A DNA stretch of 64,000 nt. Origin: an uncultured Oscillospiraceae bacterium. GTDB taxonomy: Bacteria; Bacillota; Clostridia; Christensenellales; CAG-138. The notes beneath the pieces were generated by a model, which did not search any database, was not told where the DNA came from, and was given only the letters and a program-made list of their open reading frames with translations. The translations under genes and the position numbers were made by a program. Shown in pieces: positions 21,221 to 47,563 of the stretch. Each line of letters starts with the position of its first letter. The stretch's first letter is position 1. The stretch spans positions 4,779 to 68,778 of the forward strand of contig CAYYUV010000006.1 of assembly GCA_964474405.1 (NCBI GenBank), written 5' to 3'.

Positions 21221-21898
21221 ATGAAAAAATTTCGTTGGCTTTCCCTGATGCTTGCATGTTTGCTGCTGGTTTTTGCGGCCGCATGTAAAAAGAACGATGC
21301 GCCCTCAGCCGGTCAATCGACCGCGGGACCCACCGTGGGCGCGACCGACCGACCGACCGCGCAGACAACGGATCGGCCTACCGCGGATACAAGCACGGCG
21401 CCGTCCGGGAATCCGACCCAGGATGCGACCGGCGCGCCGTCCGCCTCGCCCGGTGACGCCGAAATGGATACGCTGGACGCGGTGTTGGATCGTATCTATG
21501 CCGCCGTTCCCAATTTTGAGATCATGCTTGGGCCGGCGACTGCGATTGATCTTGAGGATGCTGCATCCGTCAAGATTTATCTCGGGCTGGACAACGCCGA
21601 TGGCATTCGCGAAGCGGTGTTTTCCGAGCCTATGATGAGCAGCATCGCCTATTCCGTCTGTTTGGTCCGGGTGGAAAAGGGGACGGATGTGGAAGCGCTC
21701 AAAAAGAGCATGGTGGATGGGGTAGACCCTGCCAAGTGGATCTGCGTTGCCGCCGAGAAGGTGGCGGCCGTTGATTGTGACGATCTGATCCTGCTGGTCA
21801 TGTCCGATACCACGCTGACCGATTCGATTCTCAATGCCTTCTCCACAACGATGAACGGCAATGTTGGCACGGCGGTGACGCGCATGGTAAACGGCTGA
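21221..21898 (+). CDS. DUF4358-like lipoprotein
   Basis: MKKFRWLSLMLACLLLVFAAAC lipoprotein signal, a Thr/Pro/Asp-rich linker with near-repeats TDRPTAQTTDRPTADT, then a C-terminal domain resembling DUF4358 (from memory). Confidence 0.55.
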   Translation: MKKFRWLSLMLACLLLVFAAACKKNDAPSAGQSTAGPTVGATDRPTAQTTDRPTADTSTAPSGNPTQDATGAPSASPGDAEMDTLDAVLDRIYAAVPNFEIMLGPATAIDLEDAASVKIYLGLDNADGIREAVFSEPMMSSIAYSVCLVRVEKGTDVEALKKSMVDGVDPAKWICVAAEKVAAVDCDDLILLVMSDTTLTDSILNAFSTTMNGNVGTAVTRMVNG

Positions 21899-21957
21899 TT
21901 ACAAAAAAGATGATTCGATCGGGCGCCGCATAGTCGGCGCCCGAATGGAGATGTGGC

Positions 21958-23358
21958 ATGCTGTTTTCTTCGATCGGCTTTCTGTTCTATTTTCTGCCCG
22001 TGGTCATCGGCGGATATTTCCTTTTGCCCGCTCGCCTGCGTAATGGGTTTTTGCTGCTGGCAAGCCTGGTGTTTTATTTTTTGGGCGAACCGCTGTATAC
22101 GCTTTTGCTGCTCGGCACATCCGTGTCCGCGTATGTACACGGGCTTCTGATCGATAGATTTCGCGGCCGTCCGCTTGGGCGCGTGTTCTTTGTTACGGCG
22201 CTTGCAGTCGGCATCGGCGCCCTGGCGCTGTTTAAATATGCCGACTTCGCCATTTCCAACGTCAATGCCCTGTTTGGGACAAATGCCGCGCTGTGGAAGC
22301 TTGCGCTGCCGCTTGGCATCAGCTTCTATACCTTTCAGCAGCTCAGCTATGTGGTCGACGTCTACCGCGGCACGGTACCTGCGCAGAGAAATCCCATCAA
22401 GCTGCTGACCTATGTTACGCTGTTTCCACAGCTGGTCGCCGGCCCCATCGTGCGGTATTCCGACGTCCAGCATGATCTTACGCACAGGGTGAGCAGCATC
22501 GCGGATGTGGCTGACGGCGCCTCGCGCTTTGTCACCGGCCTTGCCAAGAAGGTTTTGCTTGCCAACACGCTTGGATCGCTCGCAGAGGCATACCGTGCCA
22601 GCGCGGATCGATCGGTGCTGTTTGGCTGGCTCTATGCCGCGGCGGTTATGCTCCAGATCTATTATGATTTTTCCGGCTATTCCGATATGGCGATCGGTCT
22701 TGGCCGCATCTTTGGCTTTCGCTTTCCGGAGAATTTTAACTATCCCTATATCTCCGCCAGCGTTACGGAGTTTTGGCGCCGTTGGCATATGACCCTTGGC
22801 GGCTGGTTCCGGGACTATGTCTACATTCCCCTGGGCGGCAGCCGCGTCAAGAAGGGAAAATGGATCCGTAATGTGTTTGTGGTCTGGCTGCTGACCGGGC
22901 TGTGGCACGGTGCAGACTGGACGTTTGTGATATGGGGGCTGTTCTTTGCGGTGCTGTTGGTCATAGAGAAACCGCTGCTTGGGCGCATGGCGCCGCGTAT
23001 GCGCTGGGTCGCACGCTTCTATGTCCTGCCCGCGCTTGCGCTTAGCTTTGTGGTGTTCAATGCAAACGGCATGCAGCAGGCGCTGGCAGATCTTGGCGGC
23101 ATGTTTGGCGCCGGCGGACTGCCGTTCGTTTCGGCGGAAACGCTCTATTATCTCAAAAGCTATGCCGTGCTTCTTGTGATCGGCGCCGTCGGCGCGACGC
23201 CGCTGCCGTCCAGGCTGGTCGCCCGTCTGCGTGAAAAGGTGCGGCTGCGGCCTGTGATGACCGTTGCAGAGCCGCTCCTGCTTGCGGCGCTTTTGGTTGC
23301 ATGCACCGCGTATCTGGTGGATGGCAGCTTCAACCCGTTCCTGTATTTTCGGTTTTAA
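21958..23358 (+). CDS. MBOAT-family membrane O-acyltransferase (AlgI/DltB-like), copy 1
   Basis: Multi-TM protein with FYTFQQLSYVVDVYRG and the conserved His block EFWRRWHMTLGGWFRDYVYIPLGG. Confidence 0.85.
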   Translation: MLFSSIGFLFYFLPVVIGGYFLLPARLRNGFLLLASLVFYFLGEPLYTLLLLGTSVSAYVHGLLIDRFRGRPLGRVFFVTALAVGIGALALFKYADFAISNVNALFGTNAALWKLALPLGISFYTFQQLSYVVDVYRGTVPAQRNPIKLLTYVTLFPQLVAGPIVRYSDVQHDLTHRVSSIADVADGASRFVTGLAKKVLLANTLGSLAEAYRASADRSVLFGWLYAAAVMLQIYYDFSGYSDMAIGLGRIFGFRFPENFNYPYISASVTEFWRRWHMTLGGWFRDYVYIPLGGSRVKKGKWIRNVFVVWLLTGLWHGADWTFVIWGLFFAVLLVIEKPLLGRMAPRMRWVARFYVLPALALSFVVFNANGMQQALADLGGMFGAGGLPFVSAETLYYLKSYAVLLVIGAVGATPLPSRLVARLREKVRLRPVMTVAEPLLLAALLVACTAYLVDGSFNPFLYFRF

Positions 23359-23360
23359 CT

Positions 23361-24464
23361 ATGAAGAAGGATAGAAAAAATCTTGTTGTCGTGATGACTG
23401 TCGGCGCGCTGCTGCTGGCGGGACTGATTGCGTGTCTGGCGCATCGCCCGCAGGAGCTCTCCGTCAGCGAGCGCAGACGCCTGAATCAGGCGCCCGCCCT
23501 GACCTGGAAGGCGCTGGCTGAAGGCAGTTTCTGGACGGATTTTGAGTCGTACGCTGTGGATCAGTTTCCCCTGCGCATGCCCCTTCGCACCCTGAAGGCG
23601 GCGATCCACTTCGGCGTTCTTTGGCAATCCGACAACAACGGCATCTATCTGATCAACGGCAGCGTCTCAAAGCTGGATTCTCGGCTGCATACCGATCAGG
23701 TGTCATCGGCCGCGGCAAAATTCACTGCGCTGTATGACGCCTATCTGGCCGATACGGACTGCCGCGTTTATCTTGCCGCCGTGCCGGATAAGAACTATTA
23801 TCTGGCGACGGAAAACGGCTATCCCGCGCTCGATTACGACGCGCTTCTTTCCGTGCTGTACAAGGGGACGCCGGCGTTCACCCCGATCTCCCTGCTGGAT
23901 TGCCTGTCGGCGGAGGACTATTATTCCACCGATCCGCACTGGAGGCAGGAGCGGCTTTCCCGCGTGCTCACCCGACTGGGCGAGGCGATGGAGGTTACGT
24001 TTGACGGAACGGACGGGTATGACGCCACGTCCTTTGCCCCCTTCTACGGCGCCTATTACGGTCAGTCCGCGTTGCCGCTCGCGCCCGACACCCTGTATTA
24101 TCTTGGCGCGTCCAGGATGCAGGCTGTAACGGTCAAAAACTATGAGACGGGGAAAACAGGCGCCATATACAACACGGAAAAGCTGACGGGGCTTGACGCC
24201 TACGACGTCTTTTTATCCGGCGCCTGCCCGCTGATGACGGTCGAAAACCCGGATGCGGCGACGGAGCGGGAGCTGGTGCTGTTTCGGGATTCATTCGGCT
24301 CCTCGATCGCGCCCATGATGCTGTCCGGCTATAGGCGTATCACGCTGATCGACACGCGGTATATGGACCCCTCGCTGATCCCAAGCTTTGTAACCTTTAC
24401 CGATCAGGATGTGCTGTTTCTGTACAGCACGACGATTCTCAACAACAGCTCCGCCATCCGCTGA
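23361..24464 (+). CDS. DHHW-family (AlgJ/AlgX-like SGNH-related) protein, copy 1
   Basis: N-terminal TM anchor; TDPHW motif (about 23928-23942); downstream RDSFGSS serine motif (about 24282-24302). Starts 3 nt after the MBOAT stop. Confidence 0.7.
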   Translation: MKKDRKNLVVVMTVGALLLAGLIACLAHRPQELSVSERRRLNQAPALTWKALAEGSFWTDFESYAVDQFPLRMPLRTLKAAIHFGVLWQSDNNGIYLINGSVSKLDSRLHTDQVSSAAAKFTALYDAYLADTDCRVYLAAVPDKNYYLATENGYPALDYDALLSVLYKGTPAFTPISLLDCLSAEDYYSTDPHWRQERLSRVLTRLGEAMEVTFDGTDGYDATSFAPFYGAYYGQSALPLAPDTLYYLGASRMQAVTVKNYETGKTGAIYNTEKLTGLDAYDVFLSGACPLMTVENPDAATERELVLFRDSFGSSIAPMMLSGYRRITLIDTRYMDPSLIPSFVTFTDQDVLFLYSTTILNNSSAIR

Positions 24465-24547
24465 AAAACCACGGGACAGATACAGAGCGCCGAACGGGGC
24501 TTCCCGCGCGGCGCTCTTGGTTATTCGACCATATTGGCGTTATGCCG

Positions 24548-25858
24548 TTACTCGTTGCGGATGGCGGACAGCGGCGACAGCCGCATCGCCCGAAACGACG
24601 GATACAGCCCCGATACCATGGCCACCACGACGGAAAATGCCACCGCCCCCAGCACCAGCACGGGCGGGATCACGCTCGTCAGGCCGTAATCCACCAGAAA
24701 ACGATTTAACACAAACGACATGCCGTAGGACAGCAGCGTGCCGATCGCTCCGCCGAACAGACCGATGTACGCCGATTCGGTGAGGAACAGCGCGGCAATA
24801 TTGCCCATGCTGCAGCCAAGCACCTTGATGATGCCGATTTCCTTCGTGCGCTCATAGATGCTCATCATCATCGTGTTCATGATGCCGATTGCGGCGACCA
24901 GCAGCGAAACCCCACCGATCGCGCCCAGCAGGATCTGGACGCGCTGTGTGCTTTCCTGCGCCATCTCGACGGCGTCCAGCATGCTGTAGGTTCCGTAGCC
25001 CATATCGGATATGGCATTCTTGACGGAACGCACATCGTCGAGGGAGTTGCACTTGACCAGAACCTGATAAAACTCGCTTGTGACCTTTTTGCCGACAAAG
25101 GCCTCGTTCTCCTTGGCGAGCTTTGTGAACGATTCAAGATCCATCAGGCAGTACCAGGAATAGTTGTTGCTGTCTGCGCTGATCACGCCGGTTGGCGTTA
25201 CGGTGTAAAACTTGCCTGGCGGCGTGGTGTTCTCGTCCGATGACGCCCACGAATAAACCTGACTGTAATCGAATGTCAGCTGAAACCGGTTGTCAAGGTT
25301 GATCTTGGAGTTGCCGTTGCGATCCACGGCCTGCTTGCCGGTATCTGGATGATAAAACTGGTCGAGCGTGTATGCGCTGAACACAATCTGGAATTTTGTC
25401 TTTCCGATGTAATCCGGATAGGTGCCTTCGCCAAGCGTGATCTCAAATTCCTTCGCAATATCAGCATCGACGCCCAGAATATAGGCGTCCGTTACATACC
25501 GGCCGCATTTGAGAATGCCGCTCATCGTCTGCAACGGCATGACCGCCCGAACGCCCGGCAGCTTCTCAAACGCCGCGATGCTTTTTTTGTCCAGCTTCGT
25601 TTCCTGCTCCTGCGAGGTGTATACGGCGCCGCTGTTGCCGGTGGCCTCCGTCGTTTTCCAACGGTCAACCGTGATGGTGGTCAAGCTTCCCGTTTGGGCA
25701 AACGACTGGATTGTCGCCTCCTTGATGCCGATGCCGAGGGAAACCATCACCACGATGGAAGTGGTGCCGATAACCATGCCGAGCACGGTCAAAAAAGCGC
25801 GCAGCTTCCGTCGCCAAAGGTTTAGAAATGAAGTTTGCAGAACATCAAGGATGCTCAT
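24548..25858 (-). CDS. FtsX/MacB-type ABC transporter permease
   Basis: N-terminal TM, a large extracytoplasmic domain, and three C-terminal TM helices. Its ATGA start overlaps the upstream gene's stop. Confidence 0.8.
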   Translation of the reverse strand: MSILDVLQTSFLNLWRRKLRAFLTVLGMVIGTTSIVVMVSLGIGIKEATIQSFAQTGSLTTITVDRWKTTEATGNSGAVYTSQEQETKLDKKSIAAFEKLPGVRAVMPLQTMSGILKCGRYVTDAYILGVDADIAKEFEITLGEGTYPDYIGKTKFQIVFSAYTLDQFYHPDTGKQAVDRNGNSKINLDNRFQLTFDYSQVYSWASSDENTTPPGKFYTVTPTGVISADSNNYSWYCLMDLESFTKLAKENEAFVGKKVTSEFYQVLVKCNSLDDVRSVKNAISDMGYGTYSMLDAVEMAQESTQRVQILLGAIGGVSLLVAAIGIMNTMMMSIYERTKEIGIIKVLGCSMGNIAALFLTESAYIGLFGGAIGTLLSYGMSFVLNRFLVDYGLTSVIPPVLVLGAVAFSVVVAMVSGLYPSFRAMRLSPLSAIRNE

Positions 25859-27333
25859 AGCGCGGCTTCCGCCTTCTTCTTGCGCCGGAGCGACAGCACG
25901 ACAATCAGCGCGATAGCCGCCGCGACCGGAACGCCGATGATGACATAGATCCAGGGAAACGCCGCGCCGCCGTCCGCCGCCGAGCCGCCGTCTGCATACA
26001 CGTCGCCCGCAAAGCCTTCTTCGCCCTTGGCATCAACCATCGTGCCTTCCACGTTGATCGTGCCGCCCTCGCCGTTCTCGCCCCACGAGACGGAGCCGTC
26101 GCCGTTCTCCACATAGCTTTCGTTGACAAAGAGCGTGAACGGCCGCTTTTCGGTTGTTTGCGTGCCGTATACGTCCTCATAGGTGATGATCACATTGCCT
26201 TCGACATTGCCGCCCATGGACGGAATAACCGAGAAATCGGCGCGCATGGTACCGCCGGAGGTGACGTTTCCGCCAAAGTACGTCTCGGCCATCTTAAGAC
26301 CCTCGCCTTCGACGTCAACCATGCAGTTATAGATGGTCGCCTTGCCCATGTTGTAAAGCGCGATATACATGGCGCATTCGCTGTCCACCCACGCCTCATC
26401 GTAGATCGTCGGGTCGTCAATCTTGACGCGCACGCGCTGCAGCACCGGTATGGTGATGGCGCTGGTCGGCGTATAGGCCTGCTTGGACTTGACGCCGTCA
26501 TAGCTGAACGCCACGCCAAGGGTATACGCCTTAGGCTCCGTGTCCGGCGCGGACTGGAACGAGATCTCCCGTGTGATGGACGCGCCCTTGTCCAGCGCGC
26601 TGATGTAAATCGTGTTGGAACCGTTCTCGGCGGGCAGGATCATGCCGGCCTCATCCGTAAACGAGATTTGCAGATTCTGCACCGCTTCCTCCGATGAGGT
26701 GTTGGTCAGCGTCATCTTAAGCGTAAACGGCTCGCCCGCATAGACCGGGTTCGCGCTGATCGAATACGATTCGATGATGACCTTCGGCGTCGGATAATAC
26801 TTGGTGCCGCCACCGCCGCCGCCCGTGCTTGCGCCCTTGACAACCGTCAGAAACACCGCGAGCTGCGCCTGATGCTCAACGCCGTCGACGGTCGTGTACG
26901 CCACGTCAAACGAAACCTGCTTCGTGCCGGCCGTGACCGTGTGCAGCAGCGTCATCGTAAAGTTAAACTCCCAGATTACAGCGCCCTTCAGTGTGCCGTA
27001 TTGCGCCAGCAGCGCCGCGCTGTCCTGGGTGTAATTCACCCAGTTGATCACAAACGGGAAAGAATCGATATCCGTTGTGACAACGGGGGAGATGCGAAGC
27101 TCGGTGATTTCCTGATCAATGCTCATCAGCGGAATGCGCAGGGTGACCTGCTCATCCCGGTTTGCGGAGGCGGCAGGCACCTGCTTGCCCGCGGCGTCAA
27201 CGCCTGAGATGGCAAGGTTTCCGTCCGGATCGTTTACCGAGCCAAAGGCGTCCGCCGTCGAAAAAGGTACGGCCGTCAGGCAGAGCGTGAGACAAAGCAG
27301 CAGTGCGGCTGCGAGCTTAAGCGTTTTCTTCAT
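25855..27333 (-). CDS. exported beta-rich protein with a C-terminal TM anchor (CARDB/COG1361-like), ABC-associated
   Basis: Signal peptide MKKTLKLAAALLLCLTLCLTAVPFSTADA, an internal GGGGGG linker, and C-terminal FPWIYVIIGVPVAAAIALIVVLSLRRKKK. Translationally coupled to both flanking ABC genes. Confidence 0.6.
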   Translation of the reverse strand: MKKTLKLAAALLLCLTLCLTAVPFSTADAFGSVNDPDGNLAISGVDAAGKQVPAASANRDEQVTLRIPLMSIDQEITELRISPVVTTDIDSFPFVINWVNYTQDSAALLAQYGTLKGAVIWEFNFTMTLLHTVTAGTKQVSFDVAYTTVDGVEHQAQLAVFLTVVKGASTGGGGGGTKYYPTPKVIIESYSISANPVYAGEPFTLKMTLTNTSSEEAVQNLQISFTDEAGMILPAENGSNTIYISALDKGASITREISFQSAPDTEPKAYTLGVAFSYDGVKSKQAYTPTSAITIPVLQRVRVKIDDPTIYDEAWVDSECAMYIALYNMGKATIYNCMVDVEGEGLKMAETYFGGNVTSGGTMRADFSVIPSMGGNVEGNVIITYEDVYGTQTTEKRPFTLFVNESYVENGDGSVSWGENGEGGTINVEGTMVDAKGEEGFAGDVYADGGSAADGGAAFPWIYVIIGVPVAAAIALIVVLSLRRKKKAEAAL

Positions 27334-28042
27334 GTTCAGTCCCCCCATGCGGTTGTTCTATGGTTTCAACGATTTTTCCGTCCAAAAGACGGATCACCCG
27401 ATCTGCATACAGAGCCATGTTTGGATCGTGCGTGACCATCACAAGCGTTCGATTCTGACTGCGGGCGATGCTGCAGATCTGCGTCATCACCGCGTCGGAT
27501 GTGCTGGAGTCCAGGTTTCCGGTGGGCTCATCCGCAAACACAATGTCCGGGCCTGCTACCAGCGCGCGCGCAATGCCCACTCGCTGCTGCTGACCGCCGC
27601 TCATCTGCGCGGGCTTATGCTTCATGTGCGTCTCGAGCCCCACGGCGGTGAGCATGTCTGCGGCCTTCCTGCTGCGCGCCTTCTTGCCAACACCGCGGAA
27701 GGAGAGCGGAAACGCCACATTCTCCAGCGCAGTATAATAAGGAAGAAGGTTAAACGATTGGAAAATAAAGCCGACATGCTTCTGGCGGAACAGGATCAGC
27801 TCCGCCTCGCTCATCTTCTCCAGATGCTTTCCTGCTATGATCAGCTCACCGCTTGTAACCTTCTCCAGCCCGGCCAGCACGTTCAGCAGCGTCGATTTGC
27901 CCGAACCGGACCGCCCGACAATGCATAGGATCTCGCCCGCCGCCACCGTGAGGTCGATCCCCTGCAGGGCGCGGATTGCGACGCTTCCCACCTGATAAGT
28001 CTTGGAAACGTTACGGATCGTAATGATATTGTTCTGTTCCAT
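27317..28042 (-). CDS. ABC transporter ATP-binding protein (MacB/LolD-like)
   Basis: Walker A GRSGSGKST, signature MSGGQQQRV, Walker B IVFADEPT. Confidence 0.85.
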   Translation of the reverse strand: MEQNNIITIRNVSKTYQVGSVAIRALQGIDLTVAAGEILCIVGRSGSGKSTLLNVLAGLEKVTSGELIIAGKHLEKMSEAELILFRQKHVGFIFQSFNLLPYYTALENVAFPLSFRGVGKKARSRKAADMLTAVGLETHMKHKPAQMSGGQQQRVGIARALVAGPDIVFADEPTGNLDSSTSDAVMTQICSIARSQNRTLVMVTHDPNMALYADRVIRLLDGKIVETIEQPHGGTEHEENA

Positions 28043-28195
28043 CTGATACCTCTTTGTGAATCATACCACACTGCATCATACTATGTTGCGTTATATTTGT
28101 AAATTGTTCATATCATATTCAAATTATCCAGATTATTTTGTCATAAATATGTGCTAACAACTCGTTCAGAATTGCGCTTGAAGGATCTGCCTTTA

Positions 28196-28224
28196 TTGAC
28201 ACATTTCGGCAAGGTTGGTATAAT
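28196..28224 (+). promoter_or_regulatory. consensus sigma-70 promoter for the second MBOAT operon
   Basis: TTGACA (28196-28201), an exact 17-nt spacer, then TATAAT (28219-28224), inside an AT-rich divergent intergenic region. Confidence 0.65.
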
Positions 28225-28274
28225 CAAAAATACGGCTTACCGCCGCATGTTCCTGTCAGAAGGGGAGAAGAAGC

Positions 28275-29714
28275 ATGGTCTTTTCGAGCTTGACGTTTCT
28301 GCTGTTGTTCCTGCCGATACTGTTGCTGCTGTATTTTATGTGGAACAATATCCGTTGGCGCAATCTTCTTCTCGTTTTCGCTTCGCTGCTGTTTTACGGC
28401 TGGGGAGAGCCCGTCTGGATTGTGGCCATGCTCGCCGTCACGGCGGTCAATTATGGCATTGCACTGGCCGTTGATCGGGCAAAAAGCACCGGCCTTCGCC
28501 GGTTGTGCCTGACAGTCGGCGTGCTGGCGTCGCTGATGGCGCTGTTCTATTTCAAGTATGCCGCGTTCTTTGTCAACTCCTTCTCGTCCCTGCTTGGGCT
28601 GTCCTATACCATGGCGGAGCAGCAGCTCCCCATCGGCATTTCCTTTTATACTTTTCAGGTGCTGACCTATACGGTCGATGTGTACCGCAAGAAAGCCGAC
28701 GTGCAAAAGAACCCGGTTCGGCTGCTGCTGTATGTATCGTGTTTTCCACAGCTTATTGCGGGACCTATCGTGCAATATGCGGACGTGGCCGGCATGCTGG
28801 ATGCGCGTACGACCACACCGGATGATTTTTCATCCGGCATGAAACGGTTCGTGGTGGGTCTGTCCAAAAAGATTCTGCTGGCCAACATCTGCGGCGAGGC
28901 GCTGGAGCAGACCGTGCTTGCGGGCGCCGGGGTCGAGCTGTCGCTTGCGGGCGCCTGGTTTTCGGCAATCCTCTATTCGATGCAGCTCTTTTTCGATTTT
29001 TCCGCCTATTCAGACATGGCGATCGGCCTTGGCCGCGTGCTCGGCTTTCGCTATAAGGAGAACTTTAACTATCCGTACATCTCAAAGTCAATTACCGAGT
29101 TCTGGCGCAGGTGGCATATGTCCCTGTCCGGCTTTTTCCGCGATTATGTCTATATCCCACTGGGCGGCAACCGCCGGGGCGTCGCCCGCACGATCCTGAA
29201 CCTTGCCATTGTTTGGTCGCTGACGGGACTTTGGCATGGCGCAAGCTGGAATTTTGTCGTTTGGGGGCTGTATTATTTTGTGATCCTCGTGCTGGAGCGC
29301 TTTGTGTTTGCAAAGACGCTGGAGCGCACGCCCAAGGCGATTCGGCTGATCTATTCTCTCATCATGATCGTCATCGGCTGGGTTATCTTTTACTATACGG
29401 ATTTTGCTGCGGGACAGACGCATATCCTTGCGATGTTCGGCCTTGCCTACGACGCTGCAAACGGCCTGCATTTTGTACAGCTGATTGATCCCACGACCGT
29501 TTCCGTGCTCAAGAAATACACGGTGTATCCGCTGATCTGCGCCCTCTGCTGCATGCCGGTGATCCCGACGCTGGAGCGTTGGTTCGCCAGATCTCCGCGG
29601 CTCGAGCGCGCGGGCAGCGTGCTGGGTGCTGTCACGCTGACGGTGCTGCTGCTGCTTTCCATGCTGTTCTTGATCGGGCAAAGCTACAACCCGTTCATTT
29701 ATTTCCGATTCTGA
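28275..29714 (+). CDS. MBOAT-family membrane O-acyltransferase (AlgI/DltB-like), copy 2
   Basis: Paralogous to 21958..23358, with FYTFQVLTYTVDVYRK and EFWRRWHMSLSGFFRDYVYIPLGG. Confidence 0.85.
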   Translation: MVFSSLTFLLLFLPILLLLYFMWNNIRWRNLLLVFASLLFYGWGEPVWIVAMLAVTAVNYGIALAVDRAKSTGLRRLCLTVGVLASLMALFYFKYAAFFVNSFSSLLGLSYTMAEQQLPIGISFYTFQVLTYTVDVYRKKADVQKNPVRLLLYVSCFPQLIAGPIVQYADVAGMLDARTTTPDDFSSGMKRFVVGLSKKILLANICGEALEQTVLAGAGVELSLAGAWFSAILYSMQLFFDFSAYSDMAIGLGRVLGFRYKENFNYPYISKSITEFWRRWHMSLSGFFRDYVYIPLGGNRRGVARTILNLAIVWSLTGLWHGASWNFVVWGLYYFVILVLERFVFAKTLERTPKAIRLIYSLIMIVIGWVIFYYTDFAAGQTHILAMFGLAYDAANGLHFVQLIDPTTVSVLKKYTVYPLICALCCMPVIPTLERWFARSPRLERAGSVLGAVTLTVLLLLSMLFLIGQSYNPFIYFRF

Positions 29715-29725
29715 TGGAGCACGCT

Positions 29726-31060
29726 ATGCCGAAAAAGAATGCTTCGTTCGTATTCGTATATTGGTGGGTCATGACGCTCGGCGTGCTGGGCGTGATGATG
29801 CTGTTCCTTGCCAACCGCACGGCGCGCGCTTCTGTGACGGAAAATCGGATGCTGTCCGGTATGCCGGAGCTGACGGCGCAAACCGTCCGCGACGGCAGCT
29901 TCATGACCGGGTTTGAGACATTTTTGTCGGACGGATTTTTCTTTCGGGATACGGTGATTGGGTTGTCATCCCGGATCATCGGCACTTTTTCGGTGCTCGC
30001 GCCCACGGAAACAGCCGGGGCGGAGGCCGAAGCCGAAGTCGCCGCCTTTGCCGAGCCGCCTTTGACGGAGGAGCAGCCTGCGCCTGCCGCCGCTGCACAG
30101 AACCCGACGGAGCCCACGGCTGATACCGCGCCCGGCGCAGCACAGACTGAGGCTGAAAGTGCGGACGGCGTCAGTGAGCAATATTTTTATATGGACAAGC
30201 CGGACGGCTCGCGCACGGTCATCTATCGGTATTCTCCGGAGAACATCCGTGCGGCCGCCGCCTCTCTCAATGCCTATCGTGCCGCGTTGCCGGATGACGG
30301 GCGCGTGTTCTTTGCACAGATCCCGTTCTCGCACACAGCCAACGCATGGACGCGTCAGCATACCTACACAGGCTGGGAAAGCACAGTTGAGGATGCGGTG
30401 GCGTCCCTCACGGACGACGGGGTATCGGTGATCAACACCCCGGAGGTTCTGGCTCCGTATCTGGAGGCAGGGGAGAACGTATATTTTACGACGGATCATC
30501 ACTGGACCGGCTTTGGCGCGGACTGTCTGGTGCAGGACATCCAGCAGTCGTGCGGCTTGCCGCCTGTCAGTTACGACGACTATGCCTTTCAGGTGAATGC
30601 AAACGCCGTGATGAAACAAAGCTACGTCGGAACCGGCATGTCCGACGTGCTTGAGGTGCCCGAACTGCTGATGCCTGCGCGCAGCTTTGTGATCAACCGG
30701 CTGACGGAATTGCGCGAGAATGACCCGATGAAGGACATTTCGATCGGATACTTGGCGTTTCTTGGCGGTACGTTGGGCCCGTGGCGACAGATGGTGACGG
30801 GATATCACACCGGGCGCAACGCGCTGGTGATCTGCGATTCCTACGGTAATGCGTTCACCGCCTTTTTGCTGCCGTATTACGATGAAGTGCATGTGGTGGA
30901 TTATCGTCCCGCATATTACTCGCCGGAGACGGCCGGCGCATCGACCAGCACATACCTTGCGCATTACGGCATTGACGATGTATACGTCATTCTGTCCACT
31001 GCGTCCGGCATCAACTCCTGGTACATGCTCAGTTATCTGACGCAGTATCTGGACGATTAG
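29726..31060 (+). CDS. DHHW-family protein, copy 2
   Basis: N-terminal TM, an Ala/Glu/Pro low-complexity linker, TTDHHW (about 30494-30505) and ICDSYGNAF (about 30830-30856). An alternative ATG at 29714 overlaps the MBOAT stop. Confidence 0.7.
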   Translation: MPKKNASFVFVYWWVMTLGVLGVMMLFLANRTARASVTENRMLSGMPELTAQTVRDGSFMTGFETFLSDGFFFRDTVIGLSSRIIGTFSVLAPTETAGAEAEAEVAAFAEPPLTEEQPAPAAAAQNPTEPTADTAPGAAQTEAESADGVSEQYFYMDKPDGSRTVIYRYSPENIRAAAASLNAYRAALPDDGRVFFAQIPFSHTANAWTRQHTYTGWESTVEDAVASLTDDGVSVINTPEVLAPYLEAGENVYFTTDHHWTGFGADCLVQDIQQSCGLPPVSYDDYAFQVNANAVMKQSYVGTGMSDVLEVPELLMPARSFVINRLTELRENDPMKDISIGYLAFLGGTLGPWRQMVTGYHTGRNALVICDSYGNAFTAFLLPYYDEVHVVDYRPAYYSPETAGASTSTYLAHYGIDDVYVILSTASGINSWYMLSYLTQYLDD

Positions 31061-31068
31061 GAGGCGGC

Positions 31069-32439
31069 ATGCAGAGAAAATTTTCTTTCATCGTTACTTA
31101 CTGGTGGTGTATGCTGCTTGCGGTGATCGGGCTGGCGGTATTTTGCCGTGCGAGCATCTCAAGCGTGATCTCCGAGCAGGAGAATAGGACGTTGCAGACG
31201 CTCCCGTCGCTGACCGCTGAATCTTGGAAGAACGGCAGCTTCACCGCTGAGCTTGAATCCTACCTGTCGGATTATTTTCCGTGGCGTTCCAGAATGCTGG
31301 ATCAGTCCGCCAACCTGATGGACGCGTTATCGGTGCGGGACGCCGAAGAAGTGCTGGTCAGCATTGATCTTGGTGCAAAGCTCGAGGGCGTGGAGGGTGC
31401 GGCATCCAGCGGCGCTTACGCAGACGATGGCAGCGCCGATTCACAGGCATCCGCGGAGCCTTCACCGCAGGAGGATAACGCGCTCGCCGGCTCTGCACAG
31501 AGCGTCGAGAACGACCCCGTTCCGCTGAGCGGATATTCTAAATACGCCTTTAGCTATCGAAATACTGACGGCGGGTACAGCAACATATATCGGTTCGGGG
31601 ATGACGCGATCGCTGAGACGGTCAATTCGCTCAACGCATACCGAAGCGTGTTGCCGGCAGACGGAACAGTTTCCTTTACCTATGTGCCCTATTCTCAGGT
31701 CGCCAACGGCTGGCTGCTGGGTACGGATCGATGCGGGTGGGCAAGCAACGTTGAGGAAGCGCTGCAGGAGGCCGTGTCTGACGGCGTGTATGTGTATTCC
31801 TCCGTCAATGAGCTTGAGCCATATATGCGCGACGGGGAACCGGTCTTTTATAAGACCGACCATCATTGGAGCACGCGCGGCGCGTATCACATGCAGCGGC
31901 TGATGCTGGAAGCGCGCGGAGTTCCCAGCGCGGACTATGAGGATTTTTCCTATGTGGTTCACGACGATTTTCTGGGCTCGATCTATAATCAGGTGCGCGG
32001 ACTGACCCTTCAGATCCTGTCTGACGAGCTGGATGTGCCGGACGCGCTGGCACCGACGCGCGCGTATGTCTACCGTGATTTGAACGTGCTGATACGCGAG
32101 GTGCGTTATATGGAGCCGGAGCGCAACAGCTACAGCGCCATTTTGGGCGGCACGCATACGCCGTGGTATGTGGTTGAGACCGGATTCCACACCGGTCGCA
32201 ACGCATTGGTGGTCTGCGATTCGTTTGGCAATGCGTTCATCCCGTATCTGACGCCGTATTATGACACCGTGTGCCAGGTCGATCTACGGGAGAACTATGA
32301 CTTCGGCTCGGACGGCGGTGCCTCGATTCGGAGCTATGTGGATTACTACGGGATTGATGACGTGTATTTTGTCGTGTCAACCGGCTGCGGCATCAATTCC
32401 AGCTATATGCGCAGCATTGTCATACAATACCTCGGATAG
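31069..32439 (+). CDS. DHHW-family protein, copy 3
   Basis: N-terminal TM, KTDHHW (about 31858-31869) and VCDSFGNAF (about 32211-32237). Its C-terminus parallels that of copy 2. Confidence 0.7.
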   Translation: MQRKFSFIVTYWWCMLLAVIGLAVFCRASISSVISEQENRTLQTLPSLTAESWKNGSFTAELESYLSDYFPWRSRMLDQSANLMDALSVRDAEEVLVSIDLGAKLEGVEGAASSGAYADDGSADSQASAEPSPQEDNALAGSAQSVENDPVPLSGYSKYAFSYRNTDGGYSNIYRFGDDAIAETVNSLNAYRSVLPADGTVSFTYVPYSQVANGWLLGTDRCGWASNVEEALQEAVSDGVYVYSSVNELEPYMRDGEPVFYKTDHHWSTRGAYHMQRLMLEARGVPSADYEDFSYVVHDDFLGSIYNQVRGLTLQILSDELDVPDALAPTRAYVYRDLNVLIREVRYMEPERNSYSAILGGTHTPWYVVETGFHTGRNALVVCDSFGNAFIPYLTPYYDTVCQVDLRENYDFGSDGGASIRSYVDYYGIDDVYFVVSTGCGINSSYMRSIVIQYLG

Positions 32440-32451
32440 GAGGGTTGCCGA

Positions 32452-33930
32452 ATGAGTATGGTTCAGCAAAAAAATGATGAATGGAAACAGCGCAGGTTCG
32501 TCCGCCGCACCGTGGTCGTGTCCTCTGTGATCATGCTGGTGTTGGTTGTTCTGACGCTTGCTTATTTGCGTTACCGGCCCATGGTTTTGCAGCGGGTCTC
32601 CGAATCGCTGATGGAGCGGGGAAATTATTCGGGGGCGTATCAGGTTCTGTCCCGGCTGGATACCACGGATGAGATAGAGACCATGATGAACGAATGCAGC
32701 TATCGGATCGCGCTCTCTATTTATGAGAAAGGGAATTATCAAAAGGCGCAGCAGCGCTTTTCCGAGCTTGGCGATTATGCCGATAGCAAGACGATGATCC
32801 TTTCCTGCCGCTATCAGGTGGCGGTTCAGGTCTATGCCGAGGGCAGATATGCCGAGGCGCAAGGCATGTTCTATGCGCTTTCGGGATATGCCGACGCCAT
32901 GACGATGTATGATTCCTGCCGCTATCATCAGGCCGAGGATGCCTATCATGCCGGAAATGTATCCGAGGCGCTTTCCATGTATCTGGAGCTTGGCACCTTT
33001 GCCGACGCCAGAGAACGCGCGGAGAGCATCGCCATGGAGATCACCGGCATCGACGATCCGTCGGCCGCCGTTTCCGCGGCAGCGGGCTTGTCGGACGCGG
33101 AGATTGCGGAACGCTCCTATCTCACATCTGTGCGCGCCGCCCTGCCCAATCAGGTGCTGGCAGTCGGCTTCTATCATACCGTCGGGCTGAAGAAGGACGG
33201 TACGGTCGTCGCTGCCGGTCTCAACGACGACGGCCAATGTGACGTGGATGCATGGCGGAATGTCGTTGCCGTGGATGCGGGCGCTTACCATACCGTGGGT
33301 CTGAAGAAGGACGGCACGGTCGTTGCTACGGGTTCCAATGAGTATGGTCAATGTGATGTCGGGGAATGGGACGGCGTTGTTGCCGTTGCCTGCTCCGATT
33401 ATGATACCGTCGCGCTGCTGTCAAACGGTACGCTGATCTCCACCGGTTATCATACCTATGAAACCATGTCCGGCTGGAAGGATGTCCGGGCGATCGGCGC
33501 GGGCTCCTATCTCGTTGTCGCCGTCCGGCAAAACGGCAAGATGCTGGCGACCCATTCCTCCGCGCAGGATGATTCCTTCTCCGATCTGATTGCCGTCGAT
33601 GCTTCGACCGCCTATGCGGTGGGTCTGTTGACGGACGGCACCGTGATGCATACGTTCCTGGATCTGTCCGATTGGCGCAATGTCGTCGCTGTCTCGGCGG
33701 CAAGCACCGCCACCTTCGGCCTGACGGCGGACGGCACCGTTCTCTGTCATTATTTCCGTGCGTCGGATGCGCTGGATTTCTCGGATGTCACCGGCGCGGT
33801 AGCCATCGCCGCAGGCGGCACGCATACGGCCGTGCTGTGCGCAGACGGCAGCGTGCAGACGCGGGGTGACAACGCCTGTGGCCAGTGCAACACCGAGTTT
33901 TGGAGTCTCGGCAGTTACGATATTCCATAG
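32452..33930 (+). CDS. membrane-anchored protein with TPR-like repeats and a C-terminal RCC1-like beta-propeller
   Basis: N-terminal KQRRFVRRT followed by a TM helix. Repeated G-Y-x-x-A...LG-Y-A-D units of about 36 aa come next. Repeated YHTVGLKKDGTVVAAG..DGQCDV blades follow. Confidence 0.65.
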   Translation: MSMVQQKNDEWKQRRFVRRTVVVSSVIMLVLVVLTLAYLRYRPMVLQRVSESLMERGNYSGAYQVLSRLDTTDEIETMMNECSYRIALSIYEKGNYQKAQQRFSELGDYADSKTMILSCRYQVAVQVYAEGRYAEAQGMFYALSGYADAMTMYDSCRYHQAEDAYHAGNVSEALSMYLELGTFADARERAESIAMEITGIDDPSAAVSAAAGLSDAEIAERSYLTSVRAALPNQVLAVGFYHTVGLKKDGTVVAAGLNDDGQCDVDAWRNVVAVDAGAYHTVGLKKDGTVVATGSNEYGQCDVGEWDGVVAVACSDYDTVALLSNGTLISTGYHTYETMSGWKDVRAIGAGSYLVVAVRQNGKMLATHSSAQDDSFSDLIAVDASTAYAVGLLTDGTVMHTFLDLSDWRNVVAVSAASTATFGLTADGTVLCHYFRASDALDFSDVTGAVAIAAGGTHTAVLCADGSVQTRGDNACGQCNTEFWSLGSYDIP

Positions 33931-36532: not shown

Positions 36533-37744
36533 ATGGAAAAAATCAGCATGGCAACGCCGATCGTGGAGATGGACGGCGACGAAATGACCCGCATTATCTG
36601 GAAGCTGATCAAGGATGAGCTGCTTCTCCCGTTTGTTGACCTGAAGACGGAATATTATGATCTGTCCCTGCCGGAGCGCGACCGCACGCGCGACGCCGTC
36701 ACGCATGAGGCGGGCAACGCCATCAAACGTCTGGGCGTCGGCGTCAAGTGCGCGACCATAACCCCCAACGCCCAGCGCGTTAAGGAGTACAATCTGACTG
36801 AGATGTGGAAGAGCCCCAACGGCACCATCCGCGCCATCCTGGACGGCACCGTGTTCCGCGCGCCGATCCTGATCGATTCGATCAAGCCGGTCGTCAAGAA
36901 CTGGAAAAAGCCCATCACCATCGCCCGTCATGCCTATGGCGATGTGTATAAGGGAACCGAGTACCGCGTACCCGAGAAGGGAAAAGCCGAGCTGGTCTTT
37001 ACCGGCGAGAACGGCGCGACCTTCCGCGAAACCGTGTACGATTTTGAGTGCCCCGGCGTGCTTCAGGCCATGTACAACAAGGATTCCTCGATCCGCTCGT
37101 TTGCACATTCCTGCTTCCAGTACGCGCTCAATACCAAACAGGATCTGTGGTTCTCCGCCAAAGATACCATTTCCAAGAAGTATGATCAGACGTTCAAAAT
37201 GATCTTTGAGGAGATCTTTGAGAACGAGTACAAGGAAAAGTTTGCGCAGGCTGGAATTACCTATTTCTATACGCTGATCGACGACGCCGTGGCGCGTGTC
37301 ATCCGCAGCGAGGGCGGCTATATCTGGGCATGCAAAAACTATGACGGCGACGTCATGAGTGACATGGTCAGCACAGCGTTCGGTTCCCTTGCGATGATGA
37401 CCAGCGTGCTGTGCAGCCCGGACGGAAAGTTTGAATATGAGGCCGCGCACGGCACCGTCACGCGTCACTACTACAAATTCCTCAAGGGCGAGGAAACCTC
37501 GACAAACCCTATGGCAACCATCTTTGCTTGGAGCGGCGCGCTCAAAAAACGCGGCGAGCTAGACGGGCTTGCCGGGCTCGTTCGCTTTGGTGAGAAGCTG
37601 GAGGAAGCATGCTTCGACACGCTCAACGAGGGTGTTATGACCAAGGATCTTGTCGGCCTTGTCGAGGGCGCGCGTCTGGAAGCCGTCAATACGGAGACCT
37701 TTATTGCGGAGATTCGCAAACGTCTTGAGAAAAAGCTAGCATAA
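36533..37744 (+). CDS. icd: NADP-dependent isocitrate dehydrogenase (homodimeric, eukaryotic-like type)
   Basis: PIVEMDGDEMTRIIWKLIKDELLLPFVDL N-terminus and a length of about 400 aa, typical of the IDH1-like subfamily. Confidence 0.85.
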   Translation: MEKISMATPIVEMDGDEMTRIIWKLIKDELLLPFVDLKTEYYDLSLPERDRTRDAVTHEAGNAIKRLGVGVKCATITPNAQRVKEYNLTEMWKSPNGTIRAILDGTVFRAPILIDSIKPVVKNWKKPITIARHAYGDVYKGTEYRVPEKGKAELVFTGENGATFRETVYDFECPGVLQAMYNKDSSIRSFAHSCFQYALNTKQDLWFSAKDTISKKYDQTFKMIFEEIFENEYKEKFAQAGITYFYTLIDDAVARVIRSEGGYIWACKNYDGDVMSDMVSTAFGSLAMMTSVLCSPDGKFEYEAAHGTVTRHYYKFLKGEETSTNPMATIFAWSGALKKRGELDGLAGLVRFGEKLEEACFDTLNEGVMTKDLVGLVEGARLEAVNTETFIAEIRKRLEKKLA

Positions 37745-46046: not shown

Positions 46047-46135
46047 TCTGTTTTGCGGAAACCGATAGTCCATTAGGACGATGTAGCTTGAATAATACGG
46101 GTGGTATACTGAATACAAAATTATGACCTTATAGC

Positions 46136-47563
46136 ATGGGGAGGGTATTCCGGTTGGCAGCAGAGAGCACGGGGTTTGCACCGGCAGATCAACAGCGCCG
46201 CCGGAGCATAGTTAGAAGCCCATACATTCGCATTCTTGCATTTCTGCTTGCTGTCGTTATGATATCGGTTACGGTATTGGCGGGCGCGAGCAGAATTTCT
46301 TTTTCATCGGAGGATTATGAGGATTCGCCGGCGTCCGGCGCCGCCGCGTATTTGTCGGAGAATACGGAGTATCTTTCGGAGGATCGCACAACCCGCGTGG
46401 AACGCCTGTTAAAAAACGCGTTCTCTGCTTCAAAGGACTTTGAAACCGCGTATACGACCATGTCCATCTGCATTGCACGGGAGAAGTATCCCGAAGCGAT
46501 TGCGGAGTGCCGCAAGTGCATCGGCTTTTGCGGCAGTAACGGTGACCTGTTGCATGAGATGTGGATGAAGCTTGGCTGCCTGATGGCACTGGATACGGAT
46601 TATGACGGCGCGATCGACAGCCTGAGCCGCGCAATCGGCCATGACGCATCCTGCTCTACCTGCTTTTTGCTGCGTGCGCAGATGTATATGGAAAAGGATG
46701 ATGCGGCAGCCGCTTTGTCCGATCTGGAGCAGTATGCCGTTCTTGAGGGCGATACGGATTCCTCCCTGCTGTTGGTGGCGGCGCAGCTCTATGAGTACGT
46801 TGGCAACTATGCAGGCGCGCTTTCCCGGTACCTGGCGATTTTGGACATTGAGGGCAACGCCGCGGATCTGCAACGTTATGCGGATTGCGCCCGCTGCGCC
46901 ATCCTGTCGGAGGATATGGACACCGCATACCGCATGGGCATGTATTATTTGAACGGCGGCGGTGCGGATACAGACGGCAATGTTCAGTACATTGTCGCCA
47001 TGTGCCTGATGACGTCCGGACAATATGCGGACGCCGCTGACCGGTTTCTCGGATCGATCGCATCCGGCTATGCGGAACCTGCGGAACTGTACCTCAACAG
47101 CACGCTTTGCCGCTATTCTGCGGGTGAATATGAAGAGGCGATCCGCACGGCGGAGCAGGGCATGGAGGCGACGGGGGACAGCGCGTCTTACCGCCAGTGG
47201 ATCGGGATGAGCCAAATGGCGATCGCCGCTTACGACGAGGCGATTGCAGCTTTTGAGGCTGCTCTCGGGATGGATGGAACGCTCGGTGAGGTTTCGTTTT
47301 ATCTTGGCCTGTGTCATCTGATTCTTGAGGAATATCAGGACGCTGTTCCGTGTTTTACGGCGGCGATTGATGCCGGGGCCGAGTTGTATACCAGCTATTA
47401 CGACCGGGGACTGTGCTATGTAAAGCTGGGAAAATGGCAGGCTGCATATGATGATATGCAAACGGTTCTCAACAGCAACGCCGATGCGGAAATGATCAAA
47501 AACGCATTGGCCATTGTATCAGAGCTGGAGCCGCTGCTTCACGCCGCCGATACAATGCAGTAG
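46136..47563 (+). CDS. membrane-anchored TPR-repeat protein
   Basis: Arg-rich N-terminus, one TM helix (ILAFLLAVVMISVTVLAG), then repeated TPR-like units (YxxAxxxxxxAL). An alternative TTG start at 46154 follows GGGGAGGG. An extended -10 (TGgTATACT) lies at 46102-46110. Confidence 0.65.
   Translation: MGRVFRLAAESTGFAPADQQRRRSIVRSPYIRILAFLLAVVMISVTVLAGASRISFSSEDYEDSPASGAAAYLSENTEYLSEDRTTRVERLLKNAFSASKDFETAYTTMSICIAREKYPEAIAECRKCIGFCGSNGDLLHEMWMKLGCLMALDTDYDGAIDSLSRAIGHDASCSTCFLLRAQMYMEKDDAAAALSDLEQYAVLEGDTDSSLLLVAAQLYEYVGNYAGALSRYLAILDIEGNAADLQRYADCARCAILSEDMDTAYRMGMYYLNGGGADTDGNVQYIVAMCLMTSGQYADAADRFLGSIASGYAEPAELYLNSTLCRYSAGEYEEAIRTAEQGMEATGDSASYRQWIGMSQMAIAAYDEAIAAFEAALGMDGTLGEVSFYLGLCHLILEEYQDAVPCFTAAIDAGAELYTSYYDRGLCYVKLGKWQAAYDDMQTVLNSNADAEMIKNALAIVSELEPLLHAADTMQ

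Follow-up and report, generated by a model that had tools for sequence, protein, structure and literature searches.

The 64,000-nucleotide stretch of contig CAYYUV010000006.1 from an uncultured Oscillospiraceae bacterium (referred to here, at its full length, as the window) includes at positions 21221-33930 two modules that each combine a membrane-bound O-acyltransferase (MBOAT) with proteins of the DHHW family. The modules represent two distinct types of three-gene cassette that are conserved independently of each other. With a probability estimated at a little under 80%, they represent two independent systems of the PatA1/PatB1 type that O-acylate a cell-envelope glycopolymer outside the membrane, each with a dedicated accessory protein. 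Module 1 is composed of a lipoprotein, MBOAT-1 and DHHW-1, and module 2 of MBOAT-2, the tandem copies DHHW-2 and DHHW-3, and an RCC1-repeat protein. The genes of the two modules, with E-values and bit scores for the Pfam matches, are as follows.

21221-21898, plus strand: lipoprotein, the accessory protein of module 1, with the lipobox ...FAAAC at 21272-21286
21958-23358, plus strand: MBOAT-1, 466 aa, PF03062 (7.9e-26)
23361-24464, plus strand: DHHW-1, 367 aa, PF14286 (4.1e-11, 43.2 bits)
28196-28224, plus strand: promoter-like site of module 2, a match to the sigma-70 consensus
28275-29714, plus strand: MBOAT-2, 479 aa, PF03062 (7.3e-27)
29726-31060, plus strand: DHHW-2, 444 aa, PF14286 (1.1e-16, 61.5 bits)
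31069-32439, plus strand: DHHW-3, 456 aa, PF14286 (4e-19, 69.6 bits)
32452-33930, plus strand: RCC1-repeat protein, the accessory protein of module 2, 492 aa, PF13540 RCC1_2 (2.3e-33)

The ten genes at 21221-33930 were called on the window at exactly the coordinates given in a first-pass annotation made from the sequence alone, and gene calls made independently on metagenome contigs from this organism are in agreement. All motifs listed in that annotation were recovered by translation, namely EFWRRWH in both MBOATs, TDPHW...RDSFGSS in DHHW-1, TTDHHW...CDSYGNAF in DHHW-2 and KTDHHW...CDSFGNAF in DHHW-3. The two MBOAT-DHHW modules are both on the plus strand and are separated by approximately 4 kb. 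Intergenic gaps inside each MBOAT/DHHW(/RCC1) block are 2-12 nt, and 59 nt separate the end of the lipoprotein gene from the start of MBOAT-1. The promoter-like site lies approximately 50 nt upstream of MBOAT-2 and consists of TTGACA, a 17 nt spacer and TATAAT with an extended -10 TG (12/12 consensus positions), and a GGGGAG ribosome-binding site precedes the gene. The gaps together with this putative promoter, which is a consensus match only, fit two separate transcription units.

The association of MBOAT and DHHW genes is far beyond chance. Among 80 DHHW loci from GTDB species genomes, which make up the GTDB sample, an MBOAT gene is directly upstream of the DHHW gene in 75. The two MBOATs of the window are 43% identical to one another. 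MBOAT-1 shares 44-49% identity with the MBOATs of generic MBOAT-DHHW pairs, and MBOAT-2 shares 52-68% identity with the MBOATs of cassettes that also include an RCC1-type gene and no more than 47% with any others. In every locus with an MBOAT 52-68% identical to MBOAT-2, an orthologue of the RCC1-repeat protein gene comes after the DHHW gene. Within the GTDB sample, the 6 loci nearest to the window are the only ones in which DHHW is followed by an RCC1-type protein.

A reverse search of metagenome contigs, starting from the RCC1-repeat protein, led to the same arrangement. The tally was drawn from loci L098-L149 and L157 and covers full-length orthologues with enough upstream sequence. A DHHW or MBOAT gene is beside the RCC1 gene in 40 of these 40 loci. 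In 32 of them DHHW is directly upstream of RCC1, and the order is MBOAT-DHHW-RCC1 wherever the contig reaches that far. The remaining 8 comprise six with the order DHHW-MBOAT-RCC1, one scoring miscall (L123), and one in which only the MBOAT is visible before the contig ends (L131). Four loci outside the tally (L152, L153, L155 and L158) also fit MBOAT/DHHW linkage, L155 and L158 in the order DHHW-MBOAT-RCC1, and in seven truncated contigs an MBOAT gene is directly upstream of RCC1. Approximately 18 propeller-only relatives (L156 and L159-L175) have neither an MBOAT nor a DHHW gene. The permuted order DHHW-MBOAT-RCC1 is seen in L135, L136, L140-L142, L144, L155 and L158, in which the RCC1 protein is 37-43% identical to that of the window.

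The propeller cassette occurs in unrelated genomic contexts, and across loci its MBOAT, DHHW and RCC1 proteins vary in parallel in their identity to the window copies. This covariation and the constant linkage in unrelated contexts indicate that the three genes are inherited as a unit. The closest relatives of the cassette are in rumen and gut metagenome-assembled genomes, including Christensenellaceae and Candidatus Limivicinus. The RCC1-repeat protein had initially been taken for an appendage of module 2; it is now clear that it is the component that is actually conserved.

The AlphaFold2 model of the RCC1-repeat protein, with a predicted local distance difference test score (pLDDT) of 93.2, begins with a long N-terminal transmembrane helix with a positive-inside N-terminus. 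This is followed in the model by approximately 170 residues of TPR-like helical hairpins with the repeat G-x-Y-x-x-A...L-G-D-Y-x-D and then, from residue 236 to approximately 480, by a propeller of short three-stranded RCC1_2 blades. The number of blades is predicted to be about seven from the resemblance to BLIP-II, and the propeller is predicted to be extracellular. The best fold match is BLIP-II [PDB 3QHY_B] (E 5e-19, TM-score 0.70, root-mean-square deviation 2.7 Å, 28% identity), and the next are UVR8, the ACR4 receptor-kinase ectodomain and RCC1 proteins (1e-14 to 1e-10 for UVR8 and RCC1). BLIP-II from Streptomyces exfoliatus [PDB 1JTD and 3QHY] is likewise a secreted bacterial beta-propeller with short RCC1-like blades. 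However, it is a soluble beta-lactamase binder and lacks a transmembrane anchor, a helical-repeat arm or a known link to an MBOAT or SGNH protein. The resemblance would thus provide a fold and a binding role for the propeller protein, and not its ligand.

The same extracellular arrangement was seen in another protein class. Hanks-type Ser/Thr kinases of approximately 800 aa in related bacteria (P0122, P0123, P0166 and similar) have a C-terminal half made up of the same helical-repeat and RCC1_2 propeller ectodomain, which is 36% identical to the module 2 accessory protein over most of its length. The combination of helical repeat and propeller therefore behaves as a portable extracellular binding module. 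The kinases suggest that Clostridia have a class of sensor domain that takes the place held by PASTA domains in PrkC-type kinases.

The lipoprotein of module 1 has a signal peptide, the lipobox, a Pro/Thr-rich linker and a C-terminal domain that is divergent but DUF4358-like. It has no direct match to Pfam DUF4358 (PF14270), even at an E-value of 10. An exhaustive HMMER search collected a family of 1149 representatives at 50% clustering. In an hhalign comparison, this family matched genuine DUF4358 lipoproteins that are encoded directly upstream of MBOAT genes elsewhere (96% probability, E 2.6e-9), and 14 of 40 family members match PF14270 themselves (best E 1.4e-5). The lipoprotein is therefore best described, from these profile matches, as a divergent relative of DUF4358, in keeping with the original DUF4358-like label. 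A search of the PDB with the DUF4358 profile found no solved structure.

The order of module 1, with a protein of approximately 200 aa encoded ahead of MBOAT and DHHW, was kept in the three loci examined (L092, L093 and L094), and the upstream proteins are homologues of the window lipoprotein with 42%, 27% (over 104 residues) and 29% identity, respectively. In the GTDB sample, 64 loci had enough sequence upstream of the MBOAT gene; a DUF4358(-like) gene directly precedes it in 12 of these and in no RCC1-type locus. Among cultivable organisms, a DUF4358-MBOAT-DHHW cassette was seen in the genome of Holtiella tumoricola (L034) and probably in that of Anaerobium acetethylicum (L070). A further arrangement was seen in Kroppenstedtia sanguinis (L031:5804-9577), where a GDSL-type lipoprotein gene (PF13472) precedes the MBOAT-DHHW pair and a DUF4358 gene instead follows DHHW, which points to further variants of the accessory genes.

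The two modules had been described as paralogous modules of one island, with a duplication suggested. The comparison of loci does not bear this out; the cassettes belong to anciently separated families that have their own accessory proteins and are only sporadically adjacent. A horizontally acquired island was also rejected, as GC content and skew are flat and unremarkable across the window, the flanks are of housekeeping type, and in relatives the two cassettes usually lie apart. Adjacency does recur, with a generic MBOAT-DHHW module directly upstream of an RCC1-type cassette in L118:290-7512 and probably in L106:2-4760.

All three DHHW proteins are members of Pfam PF14286, the family of Bacillus cereus PatB1, and all are above its cut-off of 25 bits. 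The Pfam scan of the three proteins returned only DHHW and ALGX, and no PatB/DUF459 match. The matches to ALGX (PF16822) are partial, scoring 26.9 bits for DHHW-2 and 27.9 bits for DHHW-3 against a cut-off of 26.5 bits and spanning profile positions 71-126 of 268. Each of the three proteins matches the solved structures of PatB1 [PDB 5V8D and 5V8E] and 4NZK in sequence. For DHHW-1 the E-values are 5.1e-10 (5V8D) and 2e-5 (4NZK), and the best match of DHHW-3 is 4NZK (4.2e-08).

An AlphaFold2 model of DHHW-3 built with 48 homologues (pLDDT 85.5) has an N-terminal transmembrane helix, a disordered linker at residues 100-149 and a well-defined catalytic domain, and the predicted fold of this domain is a circularly permuted SGNH-like alpha/beta/alpha fold. 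Foldseek searches with the model recovered 4NZK (4.5e-17, TM-score 0.71), PatB1 (1.7e-12, TM-score 0.61-0.65), AlgJ (3e-5) and AlgX (6e-5), and nothing else significant. The fold of DHHW-1 and DHHW-2 is assigned from their sequence matches. The order of the catalytic residues in the DHHW proteins, with His before Ser, is also the permuted one, and each protein has one N-terminal transmembrane helix as an anchor.

The catalytic triad of PatB1 is Ser337, His202 and Asp200, with the Ser in a KDS motif and the Asp and His in TDHHW, and the oxyanion hole is provided by Arg359 in a DxRY block (PMC9487903). PatB1 S337, D200/H202 and D357/R359 align residue for residue with the DS, D-x-H-W and D-x-R motifs of all three window proteins. 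The aligned residues, in the numbering of each window protein, are at the following positions.

DHHW-1, plus strand: D191-P-H193-W at 23931-23942; D310-S311 at 24288-24293; D331-T-R333 at 24351-24359
DHHW-2, plus strand: D257-H-H259-W at 30494-30505; D371-S372 at 30836-30841; D392-Y-R394 at 30899-30907
DHHW-3, plus strand: D264-H-H266-W at 31858-31869; D384-S385 at 32218-32223; D405-L-R407 at 32281-32289

Across the 48-homologue alignment, D264, H266, D405 and R407 of DHHW-3 show no variation, and at least 90% of the sequences retain S385. A juxtamembrane motif, S-x-x-E-N-R-x-L-x-x-x-P, is also invariant in the 48 homologues and is present in PatB1; the ENR of DHHW-3 is at 31180-31188. This motif may be a docking element. 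The proposal that the DHHW proteins are SGNH-like members of the AlgX clan, with the Asp-x-His in the D-x-H-W block and the Ser downstream, agrees with the PatB1 alignment. Of the comparison with the alginate enzymes, the SGNH-like fold and the triad residues stand, and the nearest family is that of PatB1 and not AlgJ/AlgX proper.

The second component of each pair is an MBOAT with a fused tail. The relevant motifs were identified by translation.

MBOAT-1, plus strand: WRRWH at 22774-22788 (His277); C-terminal FLYFRF at 23338-23355 (Tyr463)
MBOAT-2, plus strand: WRRWH at 29103-29117 (His281); C-terminal FIYFRF at 29694-29711 (Tyr476)

The last six residues of both proteins, FLYFRF and FIYFRF, conform to the FxYxxF motif. 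PatA auto-acetylates the Tyr of a C-terminal FxYxxF from acetyl-CoA, and the acetyl-Tyr peptide is the donor for its SGNH partner (PMC12148441). In the Dlt pathway the motif is on a separate microprotein, DltX, and DltB is without the two C-terminal helices that bear it (PMC12148441). Of the MBOATs that adjoin DHHW genes in other genomes, 68 of 72 end in F.Y..F. Three DHHW-linked MBOATs (L024, L030 and L047) end in S-[IL]-Y-x-N-F, a variant of the shuttle motif that retains the Tyr.

The MBOAT-DHHW pair is itself common and already known, from PatA1/PatB1 and PatA2/PatB2 in Bacillus and CcsH/CcsI in Clostridia. PatA1/PatB1 is the closest known system for both modules, along with CcsH/CcsI, and AlgI/AlgJ/AlgX is not. 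In Bacillus cereus/anthracis, PatA1-PatB1 and PatA2-PatB2 add O-acetyl groups to the secondary cell wall polysaccharide; two pairs per genome are known. The window modules share with PatA1/PatB1 the order of an MBOAT gene followed by a DHHW (PF14286) gene, the permuted SGNH-like fold, the catalytic Ser (in KDS there and CDS or RDS here), the Asp and His in TD(H)HW, the Arg of DxR, the juxtamembrane ENRxL...P, the C-terminal FxYxxF of the MBOAT and the possibility of more than one pair per genome. However, identity in the structural alignment is only approximately 14-18%, the window is without an S-layer, csaB or secondary cell wall polysaccharide context, and DHHW-1 has TDPHW. The window cassettes also each include a dedicated third gene, and none has been described for PatA1/PatB1. 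The best sequence and structure match of DHHW-3, 4NZK, is the EUBSIR_00411 protein of [Eubacterium] siraeum, a clostridial gut organism, and is an uncharacterised DHHW protein for which there is a structure only.

The likeness to the Pseudomonas systems AlgI/AlgJ/AlgF/AlgX and WssH/WssI is more distant. These also combine an MBOAT with one or more SGNH-like transferases of the AlgX clan that have a permuted D-x-H...S triad, and they include extra accessory proteins that are needed in vivo in the known systems. The Foldseek matches here range from 3e-5 to 5e-4 with TM-scores of approximately 0.3-0.46, and no AlgF, soluble AlgX bearing a carbohydrate-binding module or polymer export genes were found among the window genes scanned. 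A second transferase is, moreover, the exception in the cassette family to which module 2 belongs. Gram-negative PatA/PatB, to which MBOAT-1 and DHHW-1 had first been likened, provides a template for the mechanism, in which the acyl group moves from the MBOAT His to the C-terminal Tyr, the SGNH Ser and then the polymer. However, PatB is in a different SGNH family (DUF459/PatB in a review table) with the canonical block order, no such Pfam match was obtained here, and PatA1/PatB1 and CcsH/CcsI are the better comparison.

From the family membership, fold, conserved catalytic residues, fused shuttle motif and gene linkage set out above, the following route would be expected. The MBOAT would take an acyl group from a cytoplasmic donor, presumably acyl-CoA, using the His of the WRRWH block, and would load it, at the outer face, onto the Tyr of the F-x-Y-x-x-F tail at its own C-terminus. 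The membrane-anchored DHHW protein would then pick up the acyl group on its Ser (S311, S372 or S385), activated by the Asp and the second His of TD[HP]HW and with the Arg of D-x-R as the oxyanion hole, and would pass it to a hydroxyl of the acceptor. The accessory proteins, the DUF4358-like lipoprotein and the propeller protein, may bind or position the acceptor or its synthesis machinery, with the propeller protein predicted to act on the side of the membrane where the DHHW catalytic domains lie. DHHW-2 would be an added paralogue, catalytically intact as judged from its residues, that shares MBOAT-2 and does not form an obligatory relay step. The second DHHW protein probably widens or changes acceptor or site specificity. 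By analogy, the modification is probably O-acetylation.

A more specific version, which is tentative, assigns the propeller protein to a distinct class of MBOAT-DHHW systems as its obligatory third subunit. It would select the acceptor, which in place of a free glycan could be a protein or a complex for cell-wall synthesis, and would couple acylation to envelope assembly. The tandem DHHW proteins would be alternative specificities on one MBOAT/propeller platform, and by analogy the DUF4358-like lipoprotein would play the equivalent part, as specificity or adaptor subunit, in a second class that is much commoner.

Several points weigh against the assignment of the modules as envelope glycopolymer O-acylation systems. 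No genes for polysaccharide synthesis, cellulose synthase, S-layer/SLH proteins, teichoic acid or capsule were found among the window genes scanned. Assembly of the Ser-His-Asp triad is predicted from the PatB1 alignment and the high local pLDDT. In the TDPHW of DHHW-1, the Asp and the catalytic His are retained and the middle His is replaced by Pro; the orthologue group of DHHW-1 is very large, is annotated as 'DHHW family protein' and has TD[PT]HW conserved. Because the H201A variant of PatB1 lost transferase activity and kept about half of its esterase activity, DHHW-1 and its TD[PT]HW orthologues may differ in mechanism. Acetyl as the acyl group, and transfer as the direction of the reaction, are assigned by analogy, and the roles proposed for the accessory proteins are read solely from synteny.

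It is unlikely that the DHHW proteins are mainly esterases that remove O-acyl groups, or that the systems acylate a protein, candidates being the propeller protein, a ligand of the propeller and the giant product encoded from 47.6 kb (described below). Most members of the SGNH superfamily are hydrolases and PatB1 has measurable esterase activity, which would fit removal. Acylation of a protein would fit with eukaryotic MBOATs, which acylate secreted proteins, with the closest propeller fold, BLIP-II, being a protein-binding module, and with the scanned window genes, among which no glycan synthesis genes were found nearby. However, the strict pairing with an MBOAT that bears an acyl-shuttle Tyr argues for transfer and not removal, and glycopolymers are the targets of all characterised bacterial MBOAT/SGNH pairs. 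The gene for the giant protein is 13.6 kb away and is not in the cassette of relatives.

The tandem DHHW genes had suggested a relay like that of AlgI/AlgJ/AlgX, in which the acyl group passes from one DHHW protein of module 2 to the other, and the latter modifies the polymer. The two genes behind one MBOAT, the weak ALGX matches just above the cut-off, the distant structural matches to AlgJ and AlgX and the recurrence of tandem copies elsewhere are consistent with this. However, in approximately 35 related cassettes with this gene order there is just one DHHW gene. DHHW-2 and DHHW-3 are identical in architecture, each with the transmembrane anchor, the juxtamembrane ENR motif and the full set of triad residues, and there is no carbohydrate-binding module, no soluble periplasmic AlgX-like form and no AlgF-like gene. 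Extra DHHW copies have arisen independently in other MBOAT-DHHW-RCC1 cassettes, with at least two in L137:1-3798 and three in L157:444-7458. All of these have an intact D-H-H-W, D-S-F and D-x-R, those of L157 are 45-51% identical to each other, and three copies suit family expansion better than a fixed two-step relay. The relay is thus not borne out and is considered quite improbable.

DHHW-2 and DHHW-3 are 37% identical, and DHHW-1 matches both only in patches. In a neighbour-joining tree that was not bootstrapped, DHHW-3 clusters with its orthologues from the nearest relatives (47-49% identity), and DHHW-2 is in a different subclade of the DHHW proteins of RCC1-type cassettes, with L013, P0077 and P0083-86 (best identity 42-43%). 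A recent tandem duplication was rejected on the basis of this level of identity and the different subclades in this unbootstrapped tree. DHHW-2 would have arisen either from an ancient duplication with loss or by acquisition from another lineage. The simplest reading is that the terminal transferase has expanded to DHHW-2 and DHHW-3 on an MBOAT/propeller platform that they share, providing for additional acceptor sites or acceptors.

It is very doubtful that one of the modules is the clostridial cellulose O-acetylation pair CcsH/CcsI. This is a clostridial MBOAT/DHHW pair with a proposed role in cellulose O-acetylation (PMC7710045). However, the Ccs pair sits in a ccsA-ccsB-ccsZ cellulose synthase locus, and ccsA, ccsB and ccsZ (GH5) are reported always to accompany it (PMC7710045). 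The window and the flanks of related cassettes yielded none of the three, and a Ccs cellulose locus was rejected.

D-alanylation of teichoic acids by DltB-like MBOATs can for practical purposes be set aside, as the fused FxYxxF tail present in both MBOATs and not in DltB, the scores to the DltB equivalog TIGR04091 (162 bits for MBOAT-1 and 140 bits for MBOAT-2, far under the 375-bit cut-off) and the failure to find dltA, dltC, dltD or dltX among the window genes scanned with Pfam all indicate that they are not Dlt orthologues, and their partner is a DHHW protein and not DltD. TIGR04091 is the sole NCBIfam match, and the best solved-structure match of MBOAT-2 is DltB [PDB 6BUG] (4.2e-22), which heads the list because no bacterial MBOAT of the PatA/AlgI type was returned among solved structures.

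The two modules are separated by three genes on the opposite strand.

24548-25858, minus strand: FtsX/MacB permease
25855-27348, minus strand: CARDB-like protein, 497 aa, secreted or anchored, with a weak CARDB-like domain and a C-terminal transmembrane helix
27317-28042, minus strand: ATP-binding cassette (ABC) ATPase

This MacB/FtsX-type ABC operon (24548-28042) was rejected as a part of either system, as it is divergently transcribed and is absent from every related cassette. A CARDB-like open reading frame (ORF) is near only 1 of the 80 DHHW loci of the GTDB sample. The promoter-like site of the operon diverges from that of MBOAT-2, and the operon is probably unrelated to the acylation modules.

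A giant ORF of at least 5470 codons starts at approximately 47591 on the plus strand (MQVYQVNIRR..., with an N-terminal hydrophobic segment) and runs off the window end at 64000. The predicted product is rich in Gly, Asp, Thr and Val and looks repetitive, and within its first 2800 aa Pfam gave nothing beyond a sub-threshold match to the InlB B-repeat (Flg_new_2). The product is probably a giant protein that is secreted or displayed at the surface. Between 48905 and 63994, the ORFs on the minus strand are shadow frames of this gene and have no Pfam or PHROG matches. Directly upstream, at 43533-47563 on the plus strand, are genes for an 837-aa protein with a C-terminal LuxR/GerE helix-turn-helix and a 475-aa membrane-anchored TPR protein, which may be regulators or partners of the giant ORF.

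The rest of the window contains components of an ABC transporter of the branched-chain amino acid type (BPD_transp_2), a 2-oxoacid dehydrogenase complex, a pyridoxal phosphate-dependent (PALP) enzyme and DegV. Further genes are those for aconitase, a protein encoded at 36533-37744 and read as isocitrate dehydrogenase next to aconitase, citrate lyase, peptidases and a LuxR-type regulator. The window gave no hits in Rfam or tRNA scans. The organism has been seen in bioreactor, wastewater and faecal metagenomes, and a search for RNA evidence returned only DNA metagenomes of these kinds and a single metatranscriptome that gave no match.

MBOAT/SGNH pairs are a general bacterial route for acylating envelope polymers, and envelope acylation affects lysozyme resistance, S-layer anchoring and the properties of the biofilm matrix. 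To our knowledge, PatA1/PatB1 is the sole characterised Gram-positive system of the DHHW type. In the searchable open literature, no description was found of DHHW systems strictly associated with a DUF4358(-like) lipoprotein or with a transmembrane, helical-repeat and BLIP-II-like propeller protein, or of a recurrent tandem DHHW expansion in the propeller-linked class, and nothing relevant was found on RCC1 together with MBOAT and SGNH proteins or on the function of DUF4358. The loci described here indicate that DHHW-type systems sort into cassette families, each with a strictly linked, dedicated third protein, and the two accessory proteins are concrete candidates for a missing adaptor or acceptor-recognition function. 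A testable first role is thereby provided for DUF4358 and also for the widespread extracellular RCC1/BLIP-II-like propellers of bacteria, which are present on Ser/Thr kinase ectodomains too. If the accessory proteins are dispensable, the locus would simply add two PatA1/PatB1-like systems, in an uncultured Clostridia bacterium of wastewater and gut, to those known. If instead they are third subunits, this would give DUF4358 its first functional assignment.

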